Part shown: piece after piece, positions 8,110-54,273 of the stretch
Layout of the letters: the number at the start of each line of letters is the position of its first letter
How positions within the stretch are numbered: position 1 is the first letter of the stretch
Source: Candidatus Kerfeldbacteria bacterium
GTDB taxonomy: Bacteria > Patescibacteriota > Patescibacteriia > SBBC01 > CAIJZX01
NCBI GenBank assembly: GCA_903825245.1
Contig: CAIJZX010000028.1
Span: 1,106 to 65,105 of the forward strand
Reading direction: 5' to 3'
DNA: 64,000 nucleotides
Made by a program: the position numbers and the translations under genes
Notes under the pieces: model-generated
Seen by the model: only the letters and a program-made list of their open reading frames with translations
Databases searched by the model: none
Told to the model about the DNA's origin: nothing

Positions 8110-8115
8110 CGACTA

Positions 8116-10263
8116 ATGTCGGAACCACGAACAACGTATATTGGCCTGGCGATCATCATCGCCGGGCTCGTGGTATACGGCGGACTTCAGATTCAACAGC
8201 TTACTCCGGTAGCCCATAGTGCTGCTGTCCAGACGGTTCCGCCGTCGAACAATTGGGCGTTCCCGCACACGACGTTGTATGGCGGGGGTTCTTCATCGGG
8301 TTGGCCGTTCACCGGAAATGAAAGCGATCTCCAGGCACCAATCGGTGCACCGTTGAATCCGACGGTGATCGCCGACTATGCCCGTTTTCCAATGATCATC
8401 ATCCCGATCACGCCATCAGGGGATACGCGTCCGGATATTCTTGCCGCTCTGCGTCAACAAAATCCGCAACAGAAAATATTCGCCTATGTCCATGCGACGG
8501 GAATATGGTGTCCAGCTGATTCGAGCAATAACAACTCCTATCCAATGAACGGATTTTATCGTCAAGAATATCTCGACGCGACGTTTGGTGATCCGAGTTG
8601 TGCCTCAAAAAGTAGTGGTCTTCTTTGGATGCAGGATGGAACATCAGCCACTAATAATCTGAATGGCGCTGGAATGAATATGAACTTGGCGCATCGTATC
8701 GATCTCGGCGGCGGTAATTACCAATACGATGTGGCCGATGCGTTGGCGACTACAGCAGCTACATATGCTATTCAATCCCATAACTACGATGGGTTGTTTC
8801 TCGATGTCTTTTGCCCGGACATACAGTGGATGGATCCGATTGATCCAAATCAACCTTACGTTTCGCCGACGAATTTCGACTATGTTAAAGCTGGGTATGG
8901 CGTAGATAAAGATGCCAATGGAAAGTATATTAACGACCAGGCAAGCCATGATGCGTTTCACGCTGGTTGGCAAGCGGGTCAGCAAGCATATACTGAGAAG
9001 CTTCGTGCGTTAGCAATTGCCAACGGACAACCAAACTACCCGATAAGCGGAAACTGTGCTCAGGCGCCGACTCGGCTCCAGCCATATCTGAACGGGTGGA
9101 TGCGCGAAGGCTTTCCGTTCCAAAACTGGTACGCCGGTGCGGCAAATTTCTACTCGAATATGCTGGCTTGGCCATGGGGGTACCTGCACCAAGATCAAGA
9201 TTTTCTCTCGCCGCAATATAATTTTATCTTTACGCCAGCTACCTCGGACTATAAAGACAGTAATGGGATTCCAGTCTACAGTCCATATAGCGTTACCAAT
9301 CAACGGAAAATGCGCTACGGCCTGGGAAGCGCCTCTCTAGGGAATGGCTCAGCTGAATTCCATGACAGCAGTGGTAATCCGGCCTACGGACTATGGTACC
9401 AATGGTGGTATGACGAATATGGTGTACGTACCGATCTGCCGCAAACTAATCCCGCCTTTGCCCAGGCGGTCAAGGATAGCCAACATACAACATGGCTCGG
9501 TATGCCGCTCGGCTCCGCCTACGCACAACCGTCGAATACATTCGCTACCATACCGAATATCCTCATCACCAATACAGGATTTGAAACGGCTGGCGCAGAC
9601 CCGTCGTCGATTCCCGCTTGGACATCGGTTATCAATTCTCAGTTTACGTCGAATACCATACACCGTGACTCCTCATCTGCGGGCGAAGGATTGGCCTCTG
9701 CACGAATTGATGTGGTAACCGTCGATCCGACGAACGCAAATCAGACCGCTTTGGAGACCGGTTCGTTTGCAATTGCCAATGGCCAAACATATACCATAAG
9801 TTTTAAAGCCAAAGCTTCAGCTTCGTTGCCGATCAATGTCAACCTCGGTTCGTACGTGGGTCAAACACTTCGAGCCGACACCGAGTGGCGGGAGTACCAA
9901 GCGGTGGTTACGACTGTGGTCGGTGAGCCAGCGGCGAGCGTAGAATTTGGATTCGCCCTTCAAGCGGGAACCTATTGGCTTGATGATGTACACGTCCAGG
10001 TCGGAGCATTGGGAGTTTGGCGTCGTGATTTTGAGCATGGCACGGTTCTGGTAAATCCAACGAATACGGCTCAGACGATACTTTTAGAAAAACCTTTCCA
10101 ACATATCCGCGGTACAGTTAACCCGACAGTAAATGATGGCTCGATAACCAGCCAAGTAACGATTGCCGGAACGGATTCCGGCGGCGGTGTCGGTGATGCA
10201 ATATTTCTCGTAGCCCGCGACCAAGTTGCACCAGCTGCAGTTACCAACCTTCAGGCGCCGTAA
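8116..10263 (+). CDS. membrane-anchored secreted glycoside-hydrolase-like TIM-barrel protein with C-terminal CBM4/9-like carbohydrate-binding module
   Basis: N-terminal TM anchor. The central region has GH-like motifs (FAYVHATGIW, GLFLDVFCPD). The C-terminal ~150 aa (NTGFETAG...YTISFKAKAS...YWLDDVHVQ) match the CBM_4_9 pattern. Confidence 0.45.
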   Translation: MSEPRTTYIGLAIIIAGLVVYGGLQIQQLTPVAHSAAVQTVPPSNNWAFPHTTLYGGGSSSGWPFTGNESDLQAPIGAPLNPTVIADYARFPMIIIPITPSGDTRPDILAALRQQNPQQKIFAYVHATGIWCPADSSNNNSYPMNGFYRQEYLDATFGDPSCASKSSGLLWMQDGTSATNNLNGAGMNMNLAHRIDLGGGNYQYDVADALATTAATYAIQSHNYDGLFLDVFCPDIQWMDPIDPNQPYVSPTNFDYVKAGYGVDKDANGKYINDQASHDAFHAGWQAGQQAYTEKLRALAIANGQPNYPISGNCAQAPTRLQPYLNGWMREGFPFQNWYAGAANFYSNMLAWPWGYLHQDQDFLSPQYNFIFTPATSDYKDSNGIPVYSPYSVTNQRKMRYGLGSASLGNGSAEFHDSSGNPAYGLWYQWWYDEYGVRTDLPQTNPAFAQAVKDSQHTTWLGMPLGSAYAQPSNTFATIPNILITNTGFETAGADPSSIPAWTSVINSQFTSNTIHRDSSSAGEGLASARIDVVTVDPTNANQTALETGSFAIANGQTYTISFKAKASASLPINVNLGSYVGQTLRADTEWREYQAVVTTVVGEPAASVEFGFALQAGTYWLDDVHVQVGALGVWRRDFEHGTVLVNPTNTAQTILLEKPFQHIRGTVNPTVNDGSITSQVTIAGTDSGGGVGDAIFLVARDQVAPAAVTNLQAP

Positions 10264-11399: not shown

Positions 11400-11487
11400 G
11401 GAGGGTTCGCATAGTGGCCTAGTGCATACGCTTGGAAAGCGTACATACCGCAAGGTATCGAGAGTTCGAATCTCTCACCCTCCGCCA
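11400..11487 (+). tRNA. tRNA-Ser (anticodon GGA), CCA encoded
   Basis: Acceptor stem GGAGGGT/ACCCTCC. Anticodon stem-loop TACGC-TTGGAAA-GCGTA gives anticodon GGA. Long variable arm (ATACC/GGTAT). T-arm GAGAG-TTCGAAT-CTCTC, discriminator G, then CCA. Confidence 0.85.
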
Positions 11488-11558
11488 ATACAATCTTTTA
11501 TCGGAGCCGACCCACGTGGCTCAAGCGGTAGCAGGTTGCATTGGCACATATATACCCA

Positions 11559-11598
11559 ACCCCTTGTCGGAGTACCCGACGAGGGGTTCTATGTTTTT
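11559..11598 (+). terminator. terminator after tRNA-Ser
   Basis: 12-bp stem ACCCCTTGTCGG/CCGACGAGGGGT (one G-U pair) with loop agtac, followed by tctatgttttt. Confidence 0.5.
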
Positions 11599-12693: not shown

Positions 12694-13605
12694 ATGGAGC
12701 TTCCGGAAAACATCAAAACCCTCTACCGCCACTGGTCATATCACATCCAAGAGGAATTGTCTCCAATTGGTGATCGACCCTTGATTGATGAGTCTCTTTT
12801 TCGTGACATGTGTTCTTTTATTGATGAGAGAATGTTAATTTGGCAGAAAAAAGTTTCCCTCCAACCTGAACCCTATTCGACGGATCCTATTCTTGCTAAA
12901 TACCGCTTCTGCAATATCTTCCGTGAGCTGGATAAACAAACCATCTTTTTTCATACTCTCCTCAACCCATTGCGAGATGATTTTTCGCTGTGGCTGTTGA
13001 ATATGTTTTATTGCCGGATGGTGGCACGTCCAGAAACTATTGAATCCGTAGGGCTACTCTCTTTTGACACAATGAAGAATGAGGAAGTATTTGGACGCTT
13101 GATATCTTCGTCCCGGCCTCGATTCGGCACCCCGTATGTTTTCCCTATTAGCGTCATCCAGAAAAGCCCAACGCCGACCCGCGAACGATTTATTGCCGAA
13201 TACCTGCCGTCGGTGATGAAGGTGATAGCGGCAGAAATACAAACGTGGAAGAAAAAATCCGTATACGATGGCCTACAAAGGATCATTCCGCTGTTTGGTA
13301 AAAACCTCTACTTCCTCTGGACAGAAGTGCTGATAGATACGGCCTACCAGTTTCCAACATACATCAATCTCTTTGAGCGTTTTCCTATTGGTCCGGGATC
13401 AGCTCCAACATTAAAAAGACTGAACCCTGCTATAGATCTGTCCATTCTTGTACAGCAGCTGACTGATGTGCCCGTGAATACGGCTCTACAGTTTAATAGC
13501 TTGCCGCTTAAACTGTCTGCAGAAAACTGGGAAGGAGTCGGTTGTGAGTTTCGGAAATACACCAACCTAAGATCGGGTATTGGTCGGAAACGCCTGTACC
13601 GTTAG
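12694..13605 (+). CDS. hypothetical protein; possibly alpha-glutamyl/putrescinyl-thymine pyrophosphorylase (aGPT-Pplase)-like (unverified)
   Basis: 303-aa soluble ORF, divergently paired with the P-loop kinase. Contains ...DPILAKYRFCNIFRELDKQT.... The assignment comes from recalled family patterns and gene context only, not from a search. Confidence 0.3.
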   Translation: MELPENIKTLYRHWSYHIQEELSPIGDRPLIDESLFRDMCSFIDERMLIWQKKVSLQPEPYSTDPILAKYRFCNIFRELDKQTIFFHTLLNPLRDDFSLWLLNMFYCRMVARPETIESVGLLSFDTMKNEEVFGRLISSSRPRFGTPYVFPISVIQKSPTPTRERFIAEYLPSVMKVIAAEIQTWKKKSVYDGLQRIIPLFGKNLYFLWTEVLIDTAYQFPTYINLFERFPIGPGSAPTLKRLNPAIDLSILVQQLTDVPVNTALQFNSLPLKLSAENWEGVGCEFRKYTNLRSGIGRKRLYR

Positions 13606-14103: not shown

Positions 14104-14222
14104 AGACCCCGACCCACATGCCTCAAATCGCCCTCTAGAAAAATCGTCAGAAAACCCTTATAATGCTTGTGTGAGTGTGGTACCTAACCCATGTGTCCCG
14201 CCAATAGAACTAAGTATCGGAC
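14104..14222 (+). repeat. promoter-bearing repeat, copy A
   Basis: gaccccgacccacatgcctcaaatcgccctctagaaaaatcgtcagaaaacccttataatgcttgtgtgagtgtggtacctaac... is near-identical to copy B (15914-16032). It embeds TAGAAA-N17-TATAAT (14136-14164). Confidence 0.6.
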
Positions 14223-14308
14223 AAATCACTTTCCTATGAGCATGAAGCAACCCGGGTGCCTTGTCCCCATCGCATTATAAAACGAATAATGAAGCTTTCG
14301 GATATCAG

Positions 14309-14953
14309 ATGATTATGATGATTATCTTTTCCTACAACATTGACAAGGATATAGAGAATATTATTAATGGAACACATGCGATCAACAGTAAAAAACCAAC
14401 AAAGTTTCAGCTTTCATTTAGCGACAACTACGGTAACAACTTTGAACCAGAAAAAGTAAAAACATACATCCAACAACAAGATAAGATAAATAATTTTGAT
14501 GCGAACAAAGAAACTGTCACCATGGAAGCAAAGTGGAAAAATGCCGAGTCTATTTTTATCGAGCGTGCGGAAAAAATATTCAGTCTTACTTACCCATCAC
14601 CGATAACTATATATTTGACCCACAATGAGCGCTGTACTTACAACATTGAAAAAAACTATTTTTTTGTCAAAATCGGATCGGAATTTTCAAACAACGCAAT
14701 CATGCATGAACTGTTACATTTTTATACGTGGCAAGCCTTTGGCAAAAAACTATTGGAAGAAGGAGTTGCAAAGTCAACATATAATGACGTCAAAGAATCT
14801 CTGACGGAACTTCTCAATCTTGAGTTTTCTGACCTTATGAGTGGAAAACCAGATAGTGGATATCCGCAGCATCAGGGGATGAGACGAATAATCCACGATA
14901 CATGGCTACCGCAAAAAGATCTTTTTTCCATAGTTCAAAAATTGATCTCATAG
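14309..14953 (+). CDS. YgjP/DUF45-like HExxH zincin (putative metal-dependent hydrolase)
   Basis: AT-rich ORF. IMHELLHFYTW is an HExxH motif, preceded by THNERCTY; this resembles the YgjP/WLM/SprT-like layout. First in-frame ATG is at 14309; the ORF track used TTG at 14261. Confidence 0.4.
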   Translation: MIMMIIFSYNIDKDIENIINGTHAINSKKPTKFQLSFSDNYGNNFEPEKVKTYIQQQDKINNFDANKETVTMEAKWKNAESIFIERAEKIFSLTYPSPITIYLTHNERCTYNIEKNYFFVKIGSEFSNNAIMHELLHFYTWQAFGKKLLEEGVAKSTYNDVKESLTELLNLEFSDLMSGKPDSGYPQHQGMRRIIHDTWLPQKDLFSIVQKLIS

Positions 14954-15054
14954 GTATTGGCGATGTAGTTGCAGGCACAAAACAAATTTATAGAAATAAT
15001 CTTCGAGGGATCGTCTTCTACGTCTCAGCTACCGACCTACTCTCCTTAACATCC

Positions 15055-15148
15055 TCCCTAGGGCGAACCTCATAAAACCCTTATAATGCTTACGCGGGTA
15101 GGATACCTAACTCGAGTGTCTCGCCAAGAGAACTTAGTATCGGGTGAC
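15055..15148 (+). repeat. promoter-bearing repeat, copy C (diverged)
   Basis: cataaaacccttataatgcttacgcgggtaggatacctaactcgagtgtctcgccaagagaacttagtatcgg aligns with copies A and B (TATAAT at 15082-15087; conserved ACCTAAC...GCCAA...TTAGTATCG). Confidence 0.5.
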
Positions 15149-15205
15149 CCATATGCCTAGAATCAAAGTCAAAATGTGGGAGGCACAAATAGGCAGAATT
15201 TGACT

Positions 15206-15856
15206 ATGCAAGTAGCCCAACTCCACAAAAAATTCGATGCTCTACAGAAAACATTCGGCCACGGTGAACTAAATCCGATATACGGCGCTGGATGTGTACA
15301 ACATCCAAGGTTAATGTTGGTATTTATGAATCCAACTGGAAAGAATGTTGCATCAAATACCAATTGGTCTGGACTTCGTGCCCCGTGGCTCGGAACAAAA
15401 AACATCTGGAAACTTTTACACGAGATAAAAGTTGTGTCAGAAGAAAGTTTTTCTGCAACCCAGACAAAAAAGTCAAACGAGTGGACACCCTTGTTTTGTT
15501 CTAATTTGTATAAGGAAATTGATTCGCACGAGGTGTACATTACAAACTTAGCCAAATGTACTCAATTGGACGCACGACCATTATCAAATTTGGTCTTCCA
15601 AAAATATCTAGAGTTATTCAAACAGGAAACACTCCTGATCCATCCAAAGAAGATAATTACCTTTGGCAACCAAGTAAGTTCGATTATTGTTGGAGAAAAT
15701 ATCTCAGTGGGAAAGTATGCTGGTAATCGGCATGAAGATGTGAAAATTGGGAGCAAGATTTTCCCAGTTTATCCGACGTGGTATCCAGTTGGGCAGGGCA
15801 TGAGAAACCTCCCATTAGCTGCGAAACGAATTAAGAAAGTTCTCTCCACCAAATAA
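15206..15856 (+). CDS. uracil-DNA glycosylase superfamily protein (family-4-like layout, divergent motif A)
   Basis: EVYITNLAKCTQ matches UDG motif EVYITNxVKCRP. LLIHPKKIITFGNQV and KIFPVYPTWYP correspond to the family-4 UDG C-terminal motifs. Motif A is FMNPTG instead of GEAPG. Confidence 0.55.
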   Translation: MQVAQLHKKFDALQKTFGHGELNPIYGAGCVQHPRLMLVFMNPTGKNVASNTNWSGLRAPWLGTKNIWKLLHEIKVVSEESFSATQTKKSNEWTPLFCSNLYKEIDSHEVYITNLAKCTQLDARPLSNLVFQKYLELFKQETLLIHPKKIITFGNQVSSIIVGENISVGKYAGNRHEDVKIGSKIFPVYPTWYPVGQGMRNLPLAAKRIKKVLSTK

Positions 15857-15913
15857 TCTAAAAAGGGTACCGAACAATTGAGACATCCTTAAGAAGTGCC
15901 TCATTTTGGTTTT

Positions 15914-16032
15914 AGACCCCGACCCACATGCCTCAAATCGCCCCCTAGAAAAATCGTCAGAAAACCCTTATAATGCTTGTGTGAGTGTGGTACCTAACTC
16001 GAATGTCCCGCCAATAAAATTTAGTATCGCGC
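15914..16032 (+). repeat. promoter-bearing repeat, copy B
   Basis: Near-identical to copy A over ~95 bp (TAGAAA 15946-15951, TATAAT 15969-15974), then diverges. It is preceded by the tail motif gagacatccttaagaagtgcctca that is shared with copy D. Confidence 0.6.
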
Positions 16033-16058
16033 AACTCATCCAGGCAGTTACTTTATCC

Positions 16059-16742
16059 ATGAATCCAGAAAACACGAAAATCGAATCTCGCGAAATCCCG
16101 GAGATTGGTTTGCGTATCGAATTTTCACCACAACATGATGCCGAAATGGTTCGTGATAATCTCGATCCGGAAGAAATAGAATGGAATCGTACAATGGGAT
16201 ATCCATGCAGATTACCGAATAAAGTTGAAGAAGCTGTTTCGCGCGGAACCATTCCAACAGTTGAAGAAATTATTGAAGCGGTGACAGCCGAGTACCAGTC
16301 GGCGAGATACGAGCAACAATCTCTGGTCTTTACCGAGGCGTGGAATGAACAACGGGATGGATTCATAAAAAACCTATCGACCCTTGGTGTACCATTGCCA
16401 AACGAATATATCCTCCGATTGACCAGGTATGGTACCGGCGGAATGTACAAACTCCCGAATGAGATTGAGGTGATTGTGAACGACCCGATTACGACCGATT
16501 TCCACACACCCTTTCATGAGATGGTTCATTTGACCATCGAAGATCTGATTGTCGAGCACCATATTGGTCACTGGACCAAGGAACGATTGGTTGATCTTAT
16601 TCTCAATATGTTCGTTCCGGAAAAGAAATATCTCCAACAAGACCCGCCACACACAAAGCAAATCGATCAACTTTTCGAGCAGTATTTTCCTGACGTGAAG
16701 CGCATTATTGAAGAAATAACTACATTGGGGAGAGGTGCTTGA
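16059..16742 (+). CDS. YgjP/DUF45-like zincin (putative nucleotide pyrophosphatase/metal-dependent hydrolase)
   Basis: TRYGTGGMY...FHEMVHLTIEDLIVEHHIGHW matches the DUF45/YgjP pattern (RWGSC...HELxHLxExNHSxxFW). ATG at 16059; the upstream in-frame extension in the ORF track is a translation of repeat B. Confidence 0.5.
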   Translation: MNPENTKIESREIPEIGLRIEFSPQHDAEMVRDNLDPEEIEWNRTMGYPCRLPNKVEEAVSRGTIPTVEEIIEAVTAEYQSARYEQQSLVFTEAWNEQRDGFIKNLSTLGVPLPNEYILRLTRYGTGGMYKLPNEIEVIVNDPITTDFHTPFHEMVHLTIEDLIVEHHIGHWTKERLVDLILNMFVPEKKYLQQDPPHTKQIDQLFEQYFPDVKRIIEEITTLGRGA

Positions 16743-16757
16743 TTATACTACAGTTCT

Positions 16758-16823
16758 ATGGCCGAACTCCCACTACAACCCACCCTCGTCGATTTCCAAG
16801 CCCAACTTCTTAAATCTCGTTAA
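16758..16823 (+). pseudogene. relic 5' fragment of a mazG-like gene (22 codons then stop)
   Basis: ATG at 16758 encodes MAELPLQPTLVDFQAQLLKSR*. It is ~80% nt-identical over ~48 nt to the start of the intact mazG at 17202 (MPELSPQPTLADFQAH...). Confidence 0.5.
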
Positions 16824-16842
16824 TTCCATTATTTTCTTTGGT

Positions 16843-17193
16843 ATGAAAATCACTCGAAAAGAATCTCATATTGAGGATAAGCATGGAATTAAACTTTGGG
16901 TTTATCCTGTTGGTCGGAAAGAGGCTGGGGTGGTTTATGTTGAAGTTGAGGAAGGACACTTCCAAGAGTTTTTTGATAAGAAAAGTACTTTTATTTACTA
17001 CATTATTGAAGGCCAAGGAACTTTTTTTCTTGATGGCAAAGAAACTACCGTTAAAGAGGCGGATTTGGTCGTTATTCCGCCCATGACAAAAATTTACTAT
17101 TTTGGGAAAATGAGAATGACCCTAACGACGGTTCCCGCCTGGGAGCCGGAAAATGAAGTTCACGTCAGGTTCATTGAAAAACCAAGCAACTAA
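16843..17193 (+). CDS. cupin domain protein
   Basis: 116 aa. GVVYVEVEEGHFQEF...YIIEGQGTFFLDGKETTVKEADLVVIPP is a typical cupin two-motif beta-barrel. Confidence 0.55.
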   Translation: MKITRKESHIEDKHGIKLWVYPVGRKEAGVVYVEVEEGHFQEFFDKKSTFIYYIIEGQGTFFLDGKETTVKEADLVVIPPMTKIYYFGKMRMTLTTVPAWEPENEVHVRFIEKPSN

Positions 17194-17201
17194 TACTTTT
17201 T

Positions 17202-17534
17202 ATGCCCGAACTTTCGCCACAGCCAACCCTCGCCGATTTCCAAGCCCACATCAAGGCAGTTTGCACTGAACGCGGTTGGGACAAAAATTCCTATTCGGAA
17301 ATATTTTTATTGTTTACCGAAGAAGTTGGAGAACTCGCGAAATCAATTCGAAATGAAGCGAAATTACATGCCCAAGTCGATCCGAAGAAACGCTTTGAGC
17401 TGGAAGAAGAGTTCGCTGATGTTTTTAACTACCTTCTGGACTTAGCCAATTACTTTAACGTTGATCTCGAAGCGGCATATCGGAAGAAACATGAGCATAA
17501 TACAACAAGAGCTTGGAAAGCGAAAGGGGAATAA
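17202..17534 (+). CDS. MazG-like nucleotide pyrophosphohydrolase
   Basis: 110 aa. TLADFQAHIKAVCTERGWDKNS...EEVGELAKSIRNE...EEEFADVFNYLLDLANYF is the MazG/NTP-PPase EExxE helical-bundle pattern. Confidence 0.7.
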   Translation: MPELSPQPTLADFQAHIKAVCTERGWDKNSYSEIFLLFTEEVGELAKSIRNEAKLHAQVDPKKRFELEEEFADVFNYLLDLANYFNVDLEAAYRKKHEHNTTRAWKAKGE

Positions 17535-17540
17535 CACTCT

Positions 17541-18320
17541 ATGAGCACACAGCGTCGAACCGTCGTTTCCTACAATCGTTATGCAGGATCATGGGCCTCG
17601 TTGATGCGGTCCGGCGGTAATACTTCGCATCGGTACCTCGAGAAACCGGCGATGTTCCGTGCCTTGCCGAGCCTTCGCGGTAAAACGGTGTTGTGTGTCG
17701 GTTGCGGGACTGGCGAAGAGTGCGAATTATTGATGAAGCTCGGCGCTAAGCGCGTCGTTGGTACAGATATTTCCAAAAACCTCATTCGCGAAGCGAAACG
17801 CGCTTTTCCCGCGATCGAATTTTACACGAGGGATATGGAGCGACTGCGATTGCCGGCGCATGCATTCGACGTGGTCTACTCGAGTTTGACCATGCACTAC
17901 GTGCCGAGCTGGAAGCAAACCCTGGCCCAAGTCAAGAAGGTGCTGAAACCCGGCGGACAGTTTGTTTTTTCAACGCACCATCCAGTCCGTTGGGGCGCTG
18001 AGACGAAAGAAACGAAGCACCACAAGTCACACATTCTCGGGTATGAAAAAATAGACAAGGGCAAGGCAATTGTGTACGGCGATTATCTGAATGGCCACTG
18101 GATTCACGATCGTTGGTTCGGCGATTTCGATGTCACGTATTATCATCGGCCGTTATCGCTCTTGATACGCGATATTTTGGAAAGCGGACTTGAGCTTATC
18201 GATTTTCAAGAGCCAAAACCGCTAGCAACTGTCCGCCGCGAGAACCCGCAATACTGGAAGATCCATCAGAAAATCCCGCTCTTCATGATCTTCGTCTTGC
18301 GAAAAAAGGAGTCAAAATAA
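17541..18320 (+). CDS. class I SAM-dependent methyltransferase
   Basis: Motif I VLCVGCGTGEE, post-I acidic residue (VVGTDIS), and motif LKPGGQFVFS. Confidence 0.75.
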   Translation: MSTQRRTVVSYNRYAGSWASLMRSGGNTSHRYLEKPAMFRALPSLRGKTVLCVGCGTGEECELLMKLGAKRVVGTDISKNLIREAKRAFPAIEFYTRDMERLRLPAHAFDVVYSSLTMHYVPSWKQTLAQVKKVLKPGGQFVFSTHHPVRWGAETKETKHHKSHILGYEKIDKGKAIVYGDYLNGHWIHDRWFGDFDVTYYHRPLSLLIRDILESGLELIDFQEPKPLATVRRENPQYWKIHQKIPLFMIFVLRKKESK

Positions 18321-18387
18321 ATAGTCTTAATCGACTTCGCATTTTGTTCGGTTTTTGGTATACTGCAGAAATAACGCACAATAAATT

Positions 18388-18852
18388 ATGAAACTACGCA
18401 ACCACGCCGTCCCGGCGGTGTACCTCGTGATGCGAAAGGATAACAAGATTCTCTTTATGCGCCGGCAAGGCAGCGGTTTTTATGACGGTTGGTATTCGCT
18501 TCCGGCCGGCCACGTTGAAGCCGGTGAATTGCCAAAGGTGGGATTAGCGCGAGAAATGGAAGAAGAACTGGGGATAGGTATCGACGTGAACGCGCTCCGG
18601 CTCGTACATACGCTGTACCGGACGAAGAGCGATGAATCCGGCGATCGGGTGGACATGTTTTTTGACGTCCCGTCGTGGCAGGGCGAGCCAACGATTATGG
18701 AGCCGCACAAGTGTGATGATTTGCAGTGGTGCTCGATGCAAGAATTACCGGACAAAGTGATGCCGCACGTACGGCGAATATTGGAGGCCATCGATCGAGG
18801 CGAGACGTTCTCCGAGTTCGATTTGCCGACAATGTTGTCGTTTCCGAAATAA
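18388..18852 (+). CDS. Nudix hydrolase
   Basis: Nudix box GHVEAGELPKVGLAREMEEELGI. Confidence 0.8.
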   Translation: MKLRNHAVPAVYLVMRKDNKILFMRRQGSGFYDGWYSLPAGHVEAGELPKVGLAREMEEELGIGIDVNALRLVHTLYRTKSDESGDRVDMFFDVPSWQGEPTIMEPHKCDDLQWCSMQELPDKVMPHVRRILEAIDRGETFSEFDLPTMLSFPK

Positions 18853-18887
18853 TTCGCTTATTTAATTGTTTGTGGTAGGCTAGAACC

Positions 18888-19358
18888 ATGGCACACCTTC
18901 ACGACAAAATAGATTTCACGACCGAAGTCTTCATTGTTTTTCAGGGCAAAGTATTGTTGCGGAAGCACGATAAATACAAGATTTGGCTGAGTGTGGGTGG
19001 GCATATTGAACTTGATGAAGACCCGATACAGGCCGCACTGCGTGAAGTGAAAGAAGAAGTTGGGCTTGATGTTCAACTCTTTGGTCAACCGATCAGTGTC
19101 AGCAATGAAGGAGAAAACGGCTATCACGAGCTACTCCCGCCGATGTTTATGAACCGACACCATATTTCTGATACGCATGATCATATAACACTGACGTATT
19201 TTGCCAAAGCGACAACTAGTACTATTCGAAATCAAGAAGACGAGCATAGCGACGAGCTGAGATGGTTTACTGCGGAAGAACTTTCAGATTCGAAGTTTGG
19301 CATTCGGGATAGTGTTCAGAAATACGCATTGGCCGCCTTACAAACAATTCAAGGATAA
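18888..19358 (+). CDS. Nudix hydrolase
   Basis: Nudix box GGHIELDEDPIQAALREVKEEVGL. Confidence 0.75.
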   Translation: MAHLHDKIDFTTEVFIVFQGKVLLRKHDKYKIWLSVGGHIELDEDPIQAALREVKEEVGLDVQLFGQPISVSNEGENGYHELLPPMFMNRHHISDTHDHITLTYFAKATTSTIRNQEDEHSDELRWFTAEELSDSKFGIRDSVQKYALAALQTIQG

Positions 19359-19361
19359 ACC

Positions 19362-19910
19362 ATGTCAGAAGAAATGATCGACGTGCTCGATACACAGGGG
19401 GAAAAAACCGGACAAATATTGGAATTAAAAGAAGTCCATCGGCAAGGACTTTGGCATCGTACGGCGCATATTTGGGTTGTGACCTCAAAAGGTAATATAC
19501 TTTTTCAACAGCGCTCGCCGATCCTTGATGTCTACCCTAACTGTTGGGATATTTCCGCGTCCGGCCACATTCGAACTGGTCAAACGAGCCTTGAAGGGGC
19601 TATAGCAGAAACACAAGAAGAAATCGGATTATCCTTAAAACCCAACTCGTTAGAATTTCTGACTACACTGCAGCATGAAAGCGAACATAATCAAGGCACA
19701 AACATTAATAGAGAATTTCAGGATGTGTATTTGGTAACACAAGACGTGTCATTGAATGAATTAACAATACTCAATACCGAGGTCAGCAATCTGCAATTTA
19801 TACATTGGTCGAAATTACGTCGACTAGTTGACAATCATGACCAGGGGTTTGCCCCACGTGGTCAAGAATACCAACTACTATTCTCAATATTGCAGCAACG
19901 TTATCCATAA
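19362..19910 (+). CDS. Nudix hydrolase (IDI-like clade)
   Basis: Nudix box SGHIRTGQTSLEGAIAETQEEIGL. The N-terminal LWHRTAHIWV...LFQQRS...YPNCWD resembles the isopentenyl-diphosphate-isomerase-like Nudix subfamily. Confidence 0.7.
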   Translation: MSEEMIDVLDTQGEKTGQILELKEVHRQGLWHRTAHIWVVTSKGNILFQQRSPILDVYPNCWDISASGHIRTGQTSLEGAIAETQEEIGLSLKPNSLEFLTTLQHESEHNQGTNINREFQDVYLVTQDVSLNELTILNTEVSNLQFIHWSKLRRLVDNHDQGFAPRGQEYQLLFSILQQRYP

Positions 19911-19990
19911 TGCCCACCCCCGTCGAAGACATCATGGTTCGACAGGCTCACCATTCAGTGATCAATAACCTGCCGTTATATAACATTTAG
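19910..19990 (+). other. uORF / duplicated dnaG start fragment (26 codons)
   Basis: ATG overlaps the Nudix stop (taATG). It encodes [12 protein letters not shown]..., whose first 8 codons duplicate the dnaG N-terminus MPTPVEDI at 19999 (23 of 28 nt identical). Confidence 0.35.
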
Positions 19991-19998
19991 TTTATTTC

Positions 19999-21822
19999 AT
20001 GCCGACACCCGTAGAAGACATAAAGGCTCGCATCGATATCGTCGATTTTATCGGCGAGTCGTTGCCGTTGAAGCAAGCGGGCAATAATTGGAAAGGGAAG
20101 TGCCCGTTCCATAACGAAAAGTCGCCGTCGTTTATGGTGTCGCGCGAGCGCGGCTCGTGGCACTGTTTCGGGTGCGGTGAAGGCGGAGATATTTTTACCT
20201 TTGTCGAAAAACAGGAAGGGTTGGATTTTCCGGAGGCATTGCGATTGCTGGCCAAGCGTGCCGGTGTCCAACTCCGCGAGTACAACGCCGAAGAGCAGAC
20301 GCAACGCACGAAAGTGCTTGATGTCTTGCGCTGGGTGAGCCGATATTACCAGGAAGTGTTCCGCAAAGCCGCTGATGCTGAGCCGGCGCGCGAATATTTA
20401 CAGAAGCGCCAAGTGAATGAAACATCGCTGGAAGATTTTGGTGTTGGTTATGCGCCGGCGGCTTGGGATAGTACGTTTCAAGCATTGAAGAAAAAAGGAT
20501 TTAGCGACGATGATATTTTCCAAGCCGGTTTAACGATTCGCAAAGATCGCGGCGCGGGTTTTTATGATCGTTTCCGCAATCGGATTATGTTCCCGATTCA
20601 GGATGTGCACGGTACAGTTGTCGGATTCAGCGGTCGTGTTCTCGATGCGCTCGTTGATCCGAAAGGACCGGTGCCGGCGAAGTACATCAACTCACCGCAA
20701 ACCATCGTTTATGACAAAGGAAATATCTTGTATGGTTTAGATAAAGCCAAGCAGGCGATAAAAAAAGCAGACAAGGCGGTCATCGTCGAAGGACAGATGG
20801 ATTGCCTCATGTCGCATCAAGCGGGCGTGAACAACGTCGTAGCGTCGTCGGGCACGGCATTGACCGCCGAGCACGTTAGTTTACTCAAACGGTTTACGAC
20901 GAACTTGGTACTGTCGTTCGATCAAGATGCGGCGGGGGCGCAAGCGGCGCTTCGCGGAGTTGACCAAGCCTTGATGGCAAAGATGAGCGTGCGCATCGTC
21001 CGGCTCACGCAAGGCAAAGATCCGGATGAGCTGATAAAAAACGATCTGCCGGCGTGGCAGAAGGCGATTGATAGCGCCCAGCCGTTGATGGAGTATTACG
21101 TCCAAGAGGCGACGGCGGGAAAAGATTTACAGAGCGTTGATGATAAAAAAGCAGTAGTGAAGTTCCTGTTACCGATTATCGGCAAGCTCGGCGATCCAGT
21201 TGAACGATCGCACTATCTCCAACAATTGGCCGACATGGTGCACGTCGAACGCGATGCTCTTCAGCAATCGCTTGATGCACAGGCACCGAAACGCCAAGCA
21301 TCGACCACCCAACCGGTGCCTGTCAAACAGAAAACCGAAGCCATCGCCGACCTCCGCGTTGACCGTTTTCGTGCGGTTTCGGAGCGATTGGTGGCCTTAT
21401 TTGTTCATGAGCCTTCATTGCTTGACCGATTTGCCAGCGGGTTTGACCCGGCTGTGCTTGTGGGGCAGGATCTTCAGACCCTATACAAGACGCTCATCAT
21501 CTGGTATAGTGTAAATCACTTTTCTACCCGCCATGCCTTGGCGGATGCAGCCTCGTCACTCGACCCGGAACAACAGGAGTTATTTACCCTCCTCACCCTC
21601 CTCGGAGATCATGAGTATCCCGATGGAATTACACCGAGCGTCGAACACGATATTTTAACGATGATCGTCGCCATGAAGCGTCGGTCACTCTCTCTCGAAT
21701 TACATCGGCTCGAAGCCGATATTCGCCGTCTCGAGCAATCGGGTGGCGCCAATGCCAGCCAACTCTCGGAGTTGTTGGCCAATGTGCAAACCGTGACCGA
21801 TCAACTTCGGACACTCGAGTAG
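19999..21822 (+). CDS. dnaG: DNA primase DnaG
   Basis: CHC2 zinc finger ([14 protein letters not shown]...[11 protein letters not shown]), Toprim region ([11 protein letters not shown]...FDQDAAG), 607 aa. Confidence 0.9.
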
Positions 21823-21941
21823 ATGTTCCTTCGCAGTATCAACGTTCCAGAATACTTCACAGCTCGTCGCCTTGTCGACCGCTGAAGCTTCAGGACGAAG
21901 ATAACTTTTTTATCCATTGTTATAGAGAGGATTTTTTCACC

Positions 21942-23162
21942 ATGCCAAAAAAAGTAGTCAAGAGCAGTAAGCATCCAGCGCCGAAAAAGCACCCGGCAGC
22001 GAAACGAAACAAATCGAATAAGCGATACGTCGCAAAAACAGCGCCGCGTGCTCCGCGACCACCACGACCGGTGATCACGCCGGAAACTATTGCCGATCTT
22101 GTGCGAAAAGGACGCCAACGCGGTTTCTTAACCGAGACCGAGTTATTGTATGCCTTTCCGGATCTTGAGAATTATATTGACCAGTATGAAGGCGCGCTCG
22201 ATGAGTTTGAAAAGAACGGCGTCCAAATCGTAGAAAATGCCGGCAGCATTCTCGAGCCGGTCAAGCCGTCATTTCTCGAACCAGCACACGCCAAGAAACA
22301 TTTGCCGACTGATGAGCGCCATTTTGATTTAGGTGATATTTCTGGCGACTCGATTCAAATGTACTTACGAGAAATTGGTAAAGTCCCATTGCTCACCGGT
22401 GAAGAAGAGGTCTCGTTAGCCAAGCGCAAAGAAGCTGGAGATGTTGAAGCTTCGAAGCGTCTCGTTGAGGCTAACCTTCGACTCGTTGTTTCGATCGCTA
22501 AGAAGTTTACCGGACGATCACTGTCACTACTTGATCTTATTCAAGAAGGGAATATTGGGTTGTTTCGGGCAGTTGAAAAATTTGATTATCGTAAAGGGTA
22601 TAAGTTTTCAACGTATGCCACCTGGTGGATTCGACAAGCGATCACTCGCGCCCTTGCCGATCAATCCCGCACCATCCGTATTCCGGTGCACATGGTTGAA
22701 ACGATCAATAAGTTCCAGCAGATCCAGCGCCAACTCATTCAGGACCTCGGTCGTGAACCGCTGCCGGAAGAAATTGCCGCGGAAATGGGCGAGCCAATCG
22801 ACAAGATCCGCCACGTCATGAAAATTTCTCAAGACACGGTATCGTTGGAAACATCGGTTGGTGAGGACGATGAAGACTCGACACTCGGTGACTTCATCGA
22901 AGACGTTAAAACAGTGTCGCCGGATAAAGTGGCCGCTCTGCAACTGTTGCGCGATGATGTTCGCACGATTATCGAATCGCTCAGTCCGCGTGAACAGAAA
23001 ATTCTGGAAATGCGCTTTGGATTAAATGACGGTGTGGCACACACACTTGAAGAAGTCGGTCAGGAGTTCGGCGTCACGAGAGAGCGTATTCGCCAAATCG
23101 AATCGAAAGCGCTGGAGAAAATCCAACAGCATCAGCACATGCGGAAACTTAAAGACTATTAG
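21942..23162 (+). CDS. rpoD: RNA polymerase sigma-70 factor RpoD
   Basis: Region 2 ([40 protein letters not shown]), region 3, and region 4.2 ([27 protein letters not shown]). Confidence 0.9.
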
Positions 23163-23222
23163 AACACCCCCAGTCCTACGGACAACCCCCTCCCACGACT
23201 ACCCCATACTCACTTCGCTCGA

Positions 23223-23250
23223 CCCCTCCTCGCAAAGGAGGGGTTTGGGG
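23223..23250 (+). terminator. terminator after rpoD
   Basis: Stem CCCCTCCT/AGGAGGGG (same stem sequence as the groEL terminator), followed by TTTGGGG. Confidence 0.45.
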
Positions 23251-23324
23251 GGCGCTGAAAAGACTGACCGTTGACGAGAATAGCATTTTTCCTTATACTC
23301 CTCCTGTTCTTGAACACTGTTGAT

Positions 23325-23396
23325 TCCCAGGTAGCTCAATGGTAGAGCAATCGGCTGTTAACCGATTGGTTCTCGGTTCGAATCCGAGCCTGGGAG
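23325..23396 (+). tRNA. tRNA-Asn (anticodon GTT), copy 1
   Basis: Acceptor TCCCAGG/CCTGGGA, D-arm GCTC-AATGGTA-GAGC, anticodon arm ATCGG-CTGTTAA-CCGAT (GTT), T-arm CTCGG-TTCGAAT-CCGAG. No encoded CCA. Confidence 0.85.
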
Positions 23397-23586
23397 GTTA
23401 GAGGAGAAGTTGCCCGGCGACCGACCCCTATCCAAACCGCCCCACTGCCTTAGCCAAATTCTCTCGTCCCTCACATCGTCGAATTTTCCAAAAGCGTCAA
23501 AGATGAGGAGACTAGGCACGATATTCGAACCAGTCCATTTCCTGTAGAATAGTAGAATCTTTGAAAACATTTTGAGCGCTATTGAT

Positions 23587-23661
23587 TCCCAGGTAGCTCA
23601 GCGGTAGAGCAATCGGCTGTTAACCGATTGGTCGTCGGTTCGAATCCGACCCTGGGAGCCA
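23587..23661 (+). tRNA. tRNA-Asn (anticodon GTT), copy 2, CCA encoded
   Basis: Same acceptor and anticodon arms as copy 1 with diverged D-loop (agcgg) and T-stem (GTCGG/CCGAC). It shares the 12-nt leader ttgattcccagg. Confidence 0.85.
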
Positions 23662-23709
23662 AGAGCGTTTGAGGTGAGTTTACACGGAAAATCACAGGTT
23701 CGAATCCTG

Positions 23710-23737
23710 TCCCCGGGTACGGTGGGGATTTTGGTTT
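23710..23737 (+). terminator. possible terminator after the tRNA-Asn pair
   Basis: Stem TCCCC/GGGGA with a 9-nt loop, followed by TTTTGGTTT. Confidence 0.3.
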
Positions 23738-23759
23738 ACAAAAGTGATACAATTGAACC

Positions 23760-24338
23760 ATGACACTCATTAAGTACCAGGAGTTCCTACTTCACTTTCC
23801 GACATCAGAACAAAGGATCTTCCATCTCGGTACAATTACGGAAAGATATTTTTACATGTCTGAAGATCAGGTTGAGGAGTTTCAAAAAGAGCTTGCCGCA
23901 GTATTTGACCCATCAAGAAGATTCACTAAACCCGCTGATAGGCTGTACTCGTTCTGTTTTGGTTTCTATTCCCTGATAAGGGTTACTCTAGAAGCAACGT
24001 ACAAACTGAATCAATACTTTGACAAGAAGTATAGTAACCAGGAATTACAGCAATACCGTGAAGATTGGTTTACACGGATTGACGCAATAAGGCAGATAGC
24101 AAATGATATCGTCAAACATCCCCTCGATGATGAGACAAGAAAGAAAGATTACTTTTTTGAACCAGGAGGCTCAGATAGCATGGGGTCTGTTACCATCTAC
24201 AAATGGTGGATCGACCCCCAAAAAGAGATGGATTTCTCCAAAGAGATAAAACCAGCAATAGATTTGCAAACCGTCTTTGATTATCTAGAAGGGCTTGCCG
24301 AAAAGTACTCAGCCGTTCTGGGTGCAGTGGTAAAATAA
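23760..24338 (+). CDS. hypothetical protein (AT-rich island)
   Basis: 192-aa ORF in DNA markedly AT-richer than the core genes, immediately downstream of the tRNA-Asn pair. Confidence 0.4.
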   Translation: MTLIKYQEFLLHFPTSEQRIFHLGTITERYFYMSEDQVEEFQKELAAVFDPSRRFTKPADRLYSFCFGFYSLIRVTLEATYKLNQYFDKKYSNQELQQYREDWFTRIDAIRQIANDIVKHPLDDETRKKDYFFEPGGSDSMGSVTIYKWWIDPQKEMDFSKEIKPAIDLQTVFDYLEGLAEKYSAVLGAVVK

Positions 24339-24396
24339 GTTCCAAGGTACAAAATAGAACCGAAGTCTCTTTCAAGTATTACCTACATAAGCCAGT

Positions 24397-25305
24397 ATGA
24401 AAATAGTAAAACCTATAAAGGCAGACATTGTTTGGCATACTTGGCTTCAAAGCGAGTGGTTTAGAATTGAGCAAGATAATCACGAAATTTCTCATCTAAT
24501 ACCCCTTGTTCTCAATCCAAACTTTGGAGATGAGAACGAAAACAAAATAAGGTTAGAAACCCTAAGATTACGCAGGGGTCTTATAATTGATAAAATGCCT
24601 GATGGGACTAATTGGTTTGAAGTAGAAATTGAAGAAAAAGATATAAATAACTTATTTATTATCCCTTCTCCCGATTGGTTTATGGATACGAATGGGACAT
24701 TCAAATTATCTGCGCTTGGAGAGAACCTAAAGCCTGGTCGTGGTTCACGAATTCATGGTATGGAAAATATTGATCACTTCCAAGAAGTTCAGCGAAAGGT
24801 TAAGTATCTTTCTGAACATTCAGAAATCGAATCTCAGGAGTTGCCCATTATTATTGCTACTCAAAACTCCGGACCATACACAATTATTGATGGCACTCAT
24901 CGAGTGGGTGCCTGGCTTCAAACCAATAAGGCTTTTCACTGGAAGATGTACTTGGCCGTGAACTCGGCCTTTGATAATTACGTTTTTAATGCTGATGGTA
25001 ATCAAGTCCACAATACAATCACTGAGCTACAGAAAAATCCTACAATTTCTGTCATTCTTGTAACAATTATCGACTTTGTTGCCTTCCTCCCCACATATCG
25101 AAAAAGCTATGAGGAGCCACACACCGAGACCATCACGACCTATTTCCTGAGTGGAGCATCCAGTCTTGTCGCCCTATTCGCACTCGCTGAGTATTCAGTC
25201 GCTACATCGCTTTACGTATCTAGTCTAGTAATAACAAACGCCGTAGTTGTAGTGATTCTAGTGATACGAAGAAAGAGCGTTAAACAATCAACGGGCATCA
25301 TTTAG
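24397..25305 (+). CDS. ParB/Srx-like nuclease-domain protein fused to a C-terminal 3-TM membrane half-module
   Basis: N-terminal soluble domain with ATQNSGPYTIIDGTHRVGAW (ParB-like DGxHR). The C-terminal ~80 aa (ISVILVTIIDFVAFLPTYRKSYEEP...VILVIRRKS) are paralogous to the second half of the membrane protein at 45673..46260. Confidence 0.45.
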   Translation: MKIVKPIKADIVWHTWLQSEWFRIEQDNHEISHLIPLVLNPNFGDENENKIRLETLRLRRGLIIDKMPDGTNWFEVEIEEKDINNLFIIPSPDWFMDTNGTFKLSALGENLKPGRGSRIHGMENIDHFQEVQRKVKYLSEHSEIESQELPIIIATQNSGPYTIIDGTHRVGAWLQTNKAFHWKMYLAVNSAFDNYVFNADGNQVHNTITELQKNPTISVILVTIIDFVAFLPTYRKSYEEPHTETITTYFLSGASSLVALFALAEYSVATSLYVSSLVITNAVVVVILVIRRKSVKQSTGII

Positions 25306-25307
25306 CG

Positions 25308-25420
25308 ATCCACGACCCACCCGCTTCAACTCCTCTCTTGAAAAATCGTCCGAAAAACCCTTAAAAGTCTATTTTGAGACAGTCCTGAAACAGCCTTAAG
25401 AAGTGTCTCAAGTTTCTCAA
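25308..25420 (+). repeat. promoter-bearing repeat, copy D (permuted core/tail order)
   Basis: gatccacgacccacccgcttcaactcctctcttgaaaaatcgtccgaaaaacccttaaaagtct aligns with copies A and B (~75% identity). It embeds TTGAAA-N17-TTAAAA (25338-25366) and is followed by the tail motif gagaca...ccttaagaagtgtctca. Confidence 0.5.
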
Positions 25421-25542
25421 AATCTGCTACAATAGCCGAAAGACCGCCTAATTCCTTGTAAGGCTCCAAATCCAGACCGGAGTGGCGAGCCAACAGTGTT
25501 TTTAGTATCAACAACCAGGCGCCTGGAATGATTGCGATGCGA

Positions 25543-38358: not shown

Positions 38359-38379
38359 TTAGTGTAGTATATACACCAT
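38359..38379 (+). promoter_or_regulatory. candidate NrtR operator 1
   Basis: TTAGTGTA-gtata-TACACCAT, overlapping the nrtR start codon. Half-sites are identical to the site at 39087. Confidence 0.45.
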
Positions 38380-39070: not shown

Positions 39071-39086
39071 ATTTTTTTATGTTTAG

Positions 39087-39107
39087 TTAGTGTAAGATTT
39101 ACACCAT
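39087..39107 (+). promoter_or_regulatory. candidate NrtR operator 2
   Basis: TTAGTGTA-agatt-TACACCAT, ~70 nt upstream of nadM-Nudix. Confidence 0.45.
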
Positions 39108-39175
39108 TCAAACCAAGCTGGGTCGTCACCGCAACGATACACCTTGGCTGGAGTCAAGGACTTGTCCTTTACAAC

Positions 39176-51395: not shown

Positions 51396-51424
51396 TTGAC
51401 AAAGAGACCCATTTGTGATAACTT
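51396..51424 (+). promoter_or_regulatory. sigma70 promoter
   Basis: TTGACA-N17-TAACTT. Confidence 0.4.
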
Positions 51425-51471
51425 CTGCTGTTCGTTCTAGGCAGTTCATTCAACAAACCCGGAGGCACACC

Positions 51472-53235: not shown

Positions 53236-53452
53236 AGAGAGATAGACCCGACGGGTTTCGGGTATTCCTATCCATCTATGAGAGTAAGTGGCGACAGGTT
53301 AGCACGGATTTTGGTTTTTGTCAATCCCTGACGGCCGCGCCTCCGTCCCTGCCCCAGCCCGCGCGGAGCCTGTGCCCGCGCAGGCGGGCATTGCATTTCA
53401 CTATGGCGGGGTGTAGGCTATGGTGGTTCAAGTATTGCCCTACTAACATACT

Positions 53453-54268: not shown

Positions 54269-54273
54269 ACCTC

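Follow-up and report, generated by a model that had tools for sequence, protein, structure and literature searches.

The stretch analyzed here, 64,000 nucleotides of a Candidatus Kerfeldbacteria contig (CAIJZX010000028.1; hereafter the window, numbered 1 to 64,000), carries four copies of a noncoding junction module, termed A, B, C, and D, all of which lie on the plus strand. The locus opens with a DUF1697 gene (minus strand), tRNA-Ser(GGA), a gene for an AAA protein (minus), a gene for a 5-hydroxymethyldeoxyuridine (5-hmdU)-kinase-like protein, and a 103-aa open reading frame (ORF; minus). Module A, a gene for a 214-aa HExxH protein, module C, a gene for a protein of the uracil-DNA glycosylase (UDG) superfamily, a hairpin, module B, and a gene for a 227-aa HExxH protein follow. 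Next come genes for a cupin, MazG, and a methyltransferase, three Nudix genes, dnaG, and rpoD, and then two tRNA-Asn genes, two AT-rich ORFs, and module D. Judged from its sequence, each repeat is a junction segment of about 130 to 190 bp that appears to combine a terminator hairpin, a promoter, and a segment similar to a tRNA-Ser gene end with its trailer. This promoter-bearing junction module is common to several lineages of the candidate phyla radiation (CPR), where it marks tRNA-linked accessory-gene arrays, and it is more than a local duplication. Because it is present in distantly related, ultra-small CPR bacteria, its most likely role is to mark gene cassettes of horizontal origin and to drive them.

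The anatomy of the module was derived from an alignment of 12 copies together with their flanking sequences. At the 5′ end stands a hairpin (GAGACA...TGYCTC) followed by ATTTTGRWTTT, which is seen in B and D and, at loci outside the window that are introduced below, in L013 (two copies), L014, and L031. After the hairpin and its T-run comes Box1 (CCCGACCCACATGCCTCAAAT), followed by a predicted promoter with a −35 element TAGAAA, a 17-nt spacer containing GAAAANCCTTA, and a −10 element TAYAAT. A further spacer of 14 to 17 nt, variable in sequence and nearly fixed in length, leads to Box3 (GGTACCTAAC), which has partial dyad symmetry about GGTACC. Four variable nucleotides (N4; CCAT, TCGA, TCAT, CCGA, and others) separate Box3 from Box4 (GTGTCCCGCCAA), and in most copies Box4 is followed by a tail (TAGAACTWAGTATCGG) and then by a looser repeat of Box1, termed Box1′. 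Box3 and Box4 are strictly kept across phyla around the variable N4, while the neighboring spacers vary at fixed length; such conservation of boxes at fixed spacing, with free sequence between them, points to recognition of the DNA by proteins. The module contains no terminal inverted repeats and no long inverted repeats. The copies in the window are laid out as follows.

14104 to 14241, plus strand: module A; Box1 14107–14128, −35 TAGAAA 14136–14141, −10 TATAAT 14159–14164, Box3 14179–14188, N4 14189–14192, Box4 14193–14204, tail 14205–14220, weak Box1′ 14221–14241.
15027 to 15163, plus strand: module C, a diverged full copy; diverged Box1 15030–15051, degenerate −35 (TAGGGC) 15060–15065, −10 TATAAT 15083–15088, Box3 GATACCTAAC 15102–15111, N4 15112–15115, Box4 GTGTCTCGCCAA 15116–15127, tail 15128–15143, Box1′ GTGACCCATATGCCTAGAAT 15144–15163.
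15880 to 15913, plus strand: 5′ element of module B, a terminator-like "tail" hairpin (GAGACA..TGCCTC) plus ATTTTGGTTTT.
15914 to 16045, plus strand: module B; Box1 15917–15938, −35 15946–15951, −10 15969–15974, Box3 15989–15998, N4 15999–16002, Box4 16003–16014, tail 16015–16030, weak Box1′ 16031–16045.
25308 to 25529, plus strand: module D, degenerate, placed by alignment and nhmmer; Box1 25310–25331, TTGAAA 25338–25343, a 17-nt gap, TTAAAA 25361–25366, insert with a hairpin (25374–25411) and a second promoter-like segment with TACAAT (25428–25433), Box3-like sequence 25466–25477, Box4-like sequence GTGGCGAGCCAA 25482–25493, tail-like sequence 25494–25512, Box1′-like sequence 25513–25529.

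An earlier reading of the window from its letters (the sequence-only reading) had proposed a four-copy family, and this family is real. A repeat search of the whole window grouped A, B, and C as a single direct-repeat family with three members: relative to A (14104–14228, the reference), B (15914–16038) matched at 91% over 125 nt and C (15027–15151) at 69%. From Box1 to Box3, A and B are 99% identical, and the 19-mer GAAAACCCTTATAATGCTT, which spans the −10 box, has three occurrences where 0.01 would be expected. The fourth copy, D, was located at 25313–25370 with an nhmmer profile of the family (E of about 1e-5), with a weak continuation at 25407–25500. Alignment showed D to be a degenerate but full-length module split by an insert of about 85 nt, and not just the 5′ half of one. 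Within the second promoter-like segment of the insert, the 15-mer AAAATCTGCTACAAT recurs unchanged in the module of a Saccharibacteria metagenome-assembled genome (MAG), and by its sequence D appears to be a module with a partial second module nested inside. The limits of C also needed correction: it is a homologous copy, as proposed, but begins near 15027 and not at 15055. The tail 17-mer CCTTAAGAAGTGYCTCA is found exactly twice (15887–15903 and 25394–25410, against 0.01 expected), and the permuted order of core and tail that it had suggested is indeed observed. This arrangement is better accounted for by the partial module nested in D and by the hairpin being a 5′ element of the module itself, and the permutation alone does not show a circular unit. 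Just 5′ of the hairpin preceding B, the sequence GGTACCGAAC (15866–15875) differs from Box3 at one position and may be a vestige of another junction.

Modules A and B are the top two sigma-70 matches in the 15 kb between 11.3 and 26.3 kb (10/12, TAGAAA-17-TATAAT). The promoter sequence had been claimed for all four copies; A and B carry it and D has TTGAAA-17-TTAAAA, but the −35 element of C is degenerate (TAGGGC), which is why only A and B are strong matches. Modules are co-oriented with the next gene, and the exceptions are decayed copies, namely D, which faces a convergent gene, the copy in L037, and the promoter part of L008. The co-orientation, the decay of copies without a co-oriented gene, and the top scores of A and B are together consistent with a working promoter.

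Beyond the window, an exact scan for the leader pattern TACCTAAC-N5-TGTC-N-CGCCAA, with one genome per species, matched four CPR genomes besides chance matches: L005 (Kerfeldbacteria), L007 (a Paceibacterota MAG), and L008 and L010 (Saccharibacteria MAGs). The upstream boxes were common to all of them. Scanning metagenomes added L012, a Saccharibacteria MAG with the same sequence as L010, and the metagenome contigs L013 and L014. Counting also L031, which is the full context of L005, and L037, from another Kerfeldbacteria genome, the module is known from eight loci (the window, L007, L008, L010, L013, L014, L031, and L037). Its copies are clustered, with four in the 64 kb of the window and four co-oriented copies in the 6.9-kb contig L013, and the four reference genomes have one exact-pattern copy each. 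Two scans of viral contigs, with the leader pattern and with Box1, returned chance matches only, and the module is therefore not evidently phage-borne; L011, L029, and L030 are without it by nhmmer. A limited search of the literature found no description of a CPR element of this kind.

The genes that follow the modules in the window are listed here.

14309 to 14953, plus strand: gene after A (P0001, start at 14309); 214 aa, HExxH motif, CPR-wide family, no Pfam match.
15206 to 15856, plus strand: gene after C; 216 aa, UDG superfamily, weak similarity to family 4.
16059 to 16742, plus strand: gene after B; 227 aa, HExxH motif, no Pfam match.

As the sequence-only reading had noted, A, C, and B each stand upstream of a gene, by about 105, 78, and 44 nt from the starts at 14309, 15206, and 16059, and the gene after B opens the run that leads to mazG, the Nudix genes, and dnaG. 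The genes after A and B are not paralogous, and their products are unrelated, which rules out local gene duplication as the source of the copies, and modules also occur in other CPR genomes and in metagenomes. At the other loci the downstream genes encode an ASCH protein, a methyltransferase, a P-loop kinase, a 140-aa protein, a 107-aa protein, and, in L031, a tRNA-Ser. Inheritance together with a particular gene was likewise rejected, since homologues of the A gene (about 70% identity) are present in L017, L023, and others without a module. The proposal that the promoter-bearing module is independent of the genes it precedes was thereby borne out. No exact-protein record of the UDG cassette protein was found in any other context, and defense-system and NCBIfam scans of the cassette proteins gave nothing informative.

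The module is linked to tRNA-Ser genes. A same-strand tRNA-Ser lies within 0.1 to 5.5 kb of a module at five of the eight loci (window, L007, L010, L031, and L037); the short loci L008, L013, and L014 show no tRNA. By a rough estimate that takes a random point in a genome of about 0.9 Mb with about five tRNA-Ser genes, such proximity would arise by chance in about 6% of cases. The modules mark the junctions or edges of accessory DNA beside tRNA genes in several genomes, as the earlier reading had supposed for this one. Three features of the window belong to this link.

11400 to 11487, plus strand: tRNA-Ser(GGA), the proposed anchor of the array (ARAGORN; Rfam tRNA, 53 bits).
11488 to 11528, plus strand: tRNA-Ser trailer with tail-like ATACAATCTTTTATCGG and Box1-like CCGACCCACGTGGCTCAA (11507–11524), the proposed attL-type side.
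11558 to 11598, plus strand: strong terminator-like hairpin after the trailer (13 pairs, eight of them GC, then a T-run).

Directly 3′ of the tRNA-Ser in the window, the sequence reads CCGCCA-ATACAATCTTTTATCGG-AG-CCGACCCACGTGGCTCAA, that is, a tail and then a Box1, the latter with 2 mismatches in 18 positions where no match is expected by chance. We ran a tail profile, made from the right parts of seven modules and nothing else, over 322 kb. Its best nonmodule match was the end and trailer of the window tRNA-Ser (E of 3.8e-4), and L007 followed with its displaced tRNA-Ser 3′ end (E of 0.019); the tRNA-Ser trailer of L010 reached only an E of 1, ranking below an unrelated match in L031 (E of 0.71). 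Positions 11482–11507 of the window match the tail of L013 module 4 at 26 of 26 nt, and the end of Box4 (...CCCGCCAA) resembles the 3′ end of tRNA-Ser (...CTCCGCCAA). Other derivations from tRNA-Ser genes were rejected. A truncated tRNA-Ser 3′ half does not account for Box3 and Box4, given that the last 6 to 7 nt alone match. Nor is the module a general tRNA-Ser promoter, for none stands 5′ of the tRNA-Ser in L033, L023, L026, L028, the window, or L010, and an 18-nt likeness of the tRNA-Ser promoter of L007 to the module of that locus is at noise level.

These tRNA-Ser genes are real integration targets, and their 5′ and 3′ fragments are found in L026, L028, L031, and L037. In L007, a gene for a 488-aa large serine recombinase abuts tRNA-Ser(GCT) (region 59–1602), and its island ends 5 kb away at a displaced tRNA end, after which come a tail and a Box1-like sequence. 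A large serine recombinase gene in L017 lies beside tRNA-Glu (region 7785–9400), and its island carries an A-gene homologue, with a different junction. Serine recombinase genes that abut tRNAs in these two loci indicate that, in CPR bacteria, the 3′ ends of tRNA genes are targets of serine-integrase islands.

Further features were seen at tRNA genes. A homologous insert of about 85 to 110 nt (…GATTCGAAGGGCGAGCACTTCTGCCRGTGGCAGGAGAGC…) lies 3′ of tRNA-Ser(TGA) in L031 (9876–9985) and 3′ of tRNA-Ser(GGA) in L037 (6370–6500), in both genomes between the intact tRNA-Ser and a duplicate of the last 20 nt of the tRNA; possible identities are a miniature integrated element and a small RNA gene, with the T-loop or 3′ end of tRNA-Ser as the target. 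In L026 (3800–4220, minus strand), an intact tRNA-Ser(GGA) sits amid fragments, with 5′ fragments upstream and a 3′ half downstream whose T-loop is broken by a GC-rich, hairpin-forming insert of about 50 nt (TCCCGCC...GGCGGGA). The tRNA-Asn gene of the window is duplicated with its flanks (23310–23403 and 23572–23665; 94 nt, 88% identical), and a Box1-like sequence (CGACCGACCCCTATCC) stands about 20 nt after the first copy. Following the second copy, a T-arm-like fragment of another tRNA (ACAGGTTCGAATCCTGTCCCCGG; 23690–23730) overlaps a terminator-like hairpin. Module D lies at the distal end of the AT-rich stretch that begins at this tRNA-Asn pair (GC content of 0.387 at 24 to 25 kb) and closes it off, in agreement with the sequence-only reading.

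We then compared the locus with that of relatives. The closest named RpoD relatives of the window organism are 81 to 85% identical. No module was found in the 20 kb around rpoD in L026, L027, and L028 (RpoD 86 to 90% identical), and L037 (RpoD 84%) has one decayed module (E of 1.4e-8). The L037 genome keeps the backbone of pyruvate phosphate dikinase (PPDK), a 704-aa protein, tRNA-Ser(GGA), dnaG, and rpoD, and its interval from tRNA-Ser to dnaG holds a different UDG-superfamily gene, then the decayed module, and nothing else. The same interval contains a single restriction-modification gene in L028 and other genes in L026; its gene content differs in every relative. The 165-aa/ComF/ClpB synteny of L031 recurs in L033 and L036, which have no module at that site. 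The module is thus polymorphic for presence and absence, with five relatives (L026, L027, L028, L033, and L036) lacking it at syntenic sites and L037 retaining a decayed copy. The differing contents of the interval indicate that the stretch 3′ of tRNA-Ser(GGA) is an insertion hotspot and that the module comes and goes with those contents.

Copies of the module are mosaic. Identity was determined pair by pair for the parts left of Box3 and right of Box4, with the following results.

A and B: left 81/82 (99%), right 54%.
L014 and L013 module 1: left 87%, right 29%.
L007 and L010, from different phyla: left 78%, right 35%.
L013 modules 1 and 3: left 74%, right 77%.

By eye, L031 and L013 module 4 are near-identical from the hairpin to CGCCAA and unrelated beyond it; past this point L031 runs into a tRNA-Ser 5′ fragment and L013 module 4 into a tail identical to the tRNA-Ser trailer of the window. 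The discordant left and right identities indicate that the two halves of the module have separate histories and are joined in the region of Box3, N4, and Box4.

The reading that we tentatively favor is that the modules are att-type junctions in a tandem array of small, integrase-less cassettes, accreted at tRNA-Ser, and that their outward promoter would drive the next gene. It is the simplest model to account together for the spread, anatomy, gene independence, tRNA-Ser linkage, and mosaic structure of the module. The proposed anchor for A, C, and B is tRNA-Ser(GGA), and that for D is probably tRNA-Asn. The hairpin would insulate the preceding gene and, with Box1, the sigma-70 promoter, and Box3, would form the right arm of a cassette. 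N4 and Box4 would be the core, mimicking the tRNA end, and the right part of the module would begin there; the tail and Box1′ would be the left arm of the following cassette or, beside the tRNA, the attL-type side. Internal modules would correspond to attP-like joints (P arm, core, and P′ arm), while distal modules with unrelated right flanks (L031, L007, and L010) would be of the attR type. Box1, which occurs on both arms, is a putative accessory or arm-type binding site. Each cassette would consist of one to a few small genes without a recombinase of its own and would be moved by site-specific recombination with an enzyme supplied in trans. The promoter would read across the joint and drive the next gene of the array or, in the circular cassette intermediate that is implied by this model, the cassette's own gene.

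Several observations weigh against this interpretation. No integrase, resolvase, or transposase was found among the ORFs of at least 140 aa in the 64 kb or among the smaller array ORFs scanned, and no recombinase lies inside the arrays of L013, L010, and L014. The recombinase island of L007 has its own, different junction, and the module stands 300 nt past it. Neither an excised circle, nor an empty site, nor one cassette in two contexts was seen, and the contigs L013 and L014 are not circular and show no terminal overlap. Box4 (GTGTCCCGCCA) agrees with tRNA-Ser 3′ ends over its last 6 to 7 nt only; Box3 does not form an inverted repeat with Box4, and no canonical core-site symmetry is visible. 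The activity of the promoter is itself a prediction from sequence. Finally, the breakpoints of identity do not fall at one fixed base, as A and B diverge after Box3 and L031 and L013 module 4 after Box4, so homologous exchange would fit them as well as site-specific exchange.

A possible, though less probable, explanation is spread of the module by homologous exchange. The module could be a portable intergenic unit of terminator, promoter, and a segment derived from a tRNA-Ser trailer, a kind of "putative mobile promoter," that has no dedicated recombinase and spreads by RecA-dependent homologous recombination or gene conversion after natural transformation, its copies acting as patches of homology. 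Circles formed between direct copies could reinsert in Campbell fashion at a copy already resident, and arrays would grow as acquired genes brought further copies with them. The varying breakpoints and the lack of a recombinase in the 64 kb and in the arrays speak for such a course, as does a 51-nt copy of the mazG 5′ end that flanks the cupin gene in the manner of a homology-driven Campbell insertion, and reuse of promoters across taxa is documented (PMC3575422). By itself, however, homologous recombination leaves the cross-phylum conservation of Box3 and Box4 around a variable N4 unexplained, and likewise the consistent linkage to tRNA-Ser and the co-orientation. Exchange between phyla would also need flanking homology, which is wanting in unrelated recipients.

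The mazG copy is a direct repeat, 82% identical, of positions 16754–16804 and 17198–17248 on either side of the cupin gene. The same arrangement exists in L027 (122–217 and 858–1190), where a mazG 5′ fragment and a different 174-aa gene precede an intact mazG (protein 89% identical). This suggests that the start of mazG is a second recurrent insertion point with a duplicated target-gene start.

Returning to the att-type reading, we find it doubtful that it extends to an integron-like platform at tRNA-Ser in which recombinase-less one-gene cassettes are exchanged across CPR phyla by a trans-acting recombinase. On such a platform, each cassette would bring an attP-like junction with a terminator and an outward promoter, which would make the array self-expressing. 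The layout of single unrelated, co-oriented genes, a recurring junction element, and cassettes without their own recombinase does resemble integron arrays. The likeness ends with the layout: here there is no IntI, no attI, and no attC hairpin, a promoter stands at every junction in place of one cassette promoter (Pc) per array, and the platform is a tRNA-Ser gene. The analogy to a cassette junction had also been drawn by the sequence-only reading, of whose interpretation it is the best-fitting part.

It is very unlikely that the module is instead a vertically inherited regulon promoter, with Box1 and Box3/Box4 as operators of one transcription factor and with conserved regulation, not mobility, behind its spread. 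The co-regulated genes would be a housecleaning set (UDG, Nudix, MazG, HIT, and HExxH proteins), and the downstream genes are indeed similar in functional flavor. Boxes at fixed spacing with variable spacers, the lack of RNA structure, and the partial dyad of Box3 around GGTACC would all suit protein-DNA recognition of this kind. The homology, however, covers 125 to 190 nt at 70 to 99% identity and includes the hairpin and the trailer-like tail, which is far beyond an operator. The module is moreover absent at syntenic sites of close relatives and near-identical in distant phyla, and orthologous genes elsewhere lack it.

Still less credence can be given to a cis-regulatory leader RNA moving together with its promoter, be it similar to a riboswitch or a processed tRNA-like leader, and this reading is largely refuted. 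Box3 and Box4 lie within the predicted 5′ untranslated region, Box4 ends in ...GCCA as the 3′ end of a tRNA does, and 6 of 11 copies could form a GCGGG/CCCGC stem. Against this, single-sequence folds of the leader were no more stable than those of shuffled sequences (z of −1.1 to +1.5), and RNAalifold gave 0 pairs in the consensus of 11 leaders. The two helices that can be drawn by eye (GCGGG/CCCGC, and Box3 with the tail) showed no compensatory changes, and their 61% pairing equaled that of shuffled controls. In Rfam searches, tRNAs alone reached the gathering threshold in the window, and nothing matched the module between 13.9 and 16.3 kb even at an E of ≤10. The structured conserved leader of the sequence-only reading was accordingly given up.

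The least probable origin is a miniature inverted-repeat transposable element (MITE) or other transposase-mobilized miniature element, or an integron attC site: a short noncoding repeat with a promoter recalls Correia elements, an IS200-like gene sits within the L013 array, and ACCTAAC in Box3 fits, by eye, the attC R″ consensus RYYYAAC, but the module, unlike Correia and MITE elements, has no inverted repeats, terminal or other, and no target duplications, it occurs in clusters of one to four copies per locus and is not dispersed, it forms neither an imperfect-palindrome fold nor an R″-L″...L′-R′ hairpin, no integron integrase and no Phage_integrase-type protein was found among the window ORFs scanned, and the cassettes carry promoters, with the module 5′ of genes and not 3′. 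For lack of terminal inverted repeats and because its copies are few and clustered, the MITE-like character first ascribed to the module does not stand.

The module is best filed under kinds of system that are already known, namely tRNA-linked island or cassette accretion and mobile promoters. In circularized elements of the Tn916 type, promoters that read across the att joint have been shown experimentally, and an outward promoter at the end of a cassette would similarly drive genes beyond the joint here, as we infer. Tandem accretion of integrase-less, att-flanked elements is established for ICESt1 and cis-mobilizable elements (CIMEs) in Streptococcus (PMC5704250), and tandem islands at ssrA are known in Dehalococcoides (PMC3146451). 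Like these, the arrays are anchored at a tRNA 3′ end, have junctions that repeat the target end and units without their own recombinase, stand in tandem, are sporadically distributed, and make for a hypervariable interval among relatives. They differ in that their units are tiny, often one gene of 0.6 to 1 kb, that the junction is a long conserved module of 130 to 190 bp with a terminator and an outward promoter, that this module is conserved across CPR phyla, and that the cognate integrase and excision are putative. Putative mobile promoters, or promoter reuse, were described by Nijveen, Matus-Garcia, and van Passel (PMC3575422). As there, highly similar predicted promoter regions stand 5′ of nonhomologous genes within and between genomes of distant taxa, whereas the promoter studied here is set in a larger unit with tRNA-trailer homology and is clustered at tRNA-linked islands.

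CPR bacteria (Patescibacteria) have tiny genomes with few recognized mobile elements, and how they take up and express accessory genes is poorly understood. A module conserved across their phyla would provide a sequence handle on this flexible gene pool, as it marks tRNA-Ser hotspots and would ready a promoter for new genes. It would point to a compact cassette system and would supply a natural promoter and terminator part, together with a possible integration site, for the emerging genetics of CPR bacteria. Even if it were no more than a scar of recombination whose promoter is fortuitous, the module would remain useful for marking island boundaries in these genomes.

Other features of the window were noted in passing. 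The islet between tRNA-Ser and module A contains, beside the gene for an AAA_28 protein, a gene (12694–13605) for a 303-aa protein with a 5-hmdU DNA kinase helical domain (PF18723, E of 1e-16), which belongs to a family linked in phages to hypermodification of thymidine. The density of Nudix genes is unusually high: in addition to the three in tandem 5′ of dnaG (18388–19910), further Nudix genes (38378–41501 and 51415–52032) comprise one for an NrtR-like regulator with Nudix and winged helix-turn-helix domains, beside NAMPT/NAPRTase, and two more. A second AT-rich islet (53000–55000, GC content of 0.36 to 0.45) holds a gene for a RusA-like Holliday-junction resolvase (54433–54876) and ORFs without a Pfam match; the islet is probably a remnant of a prophage or one more patch of horizontally acquired DNA.

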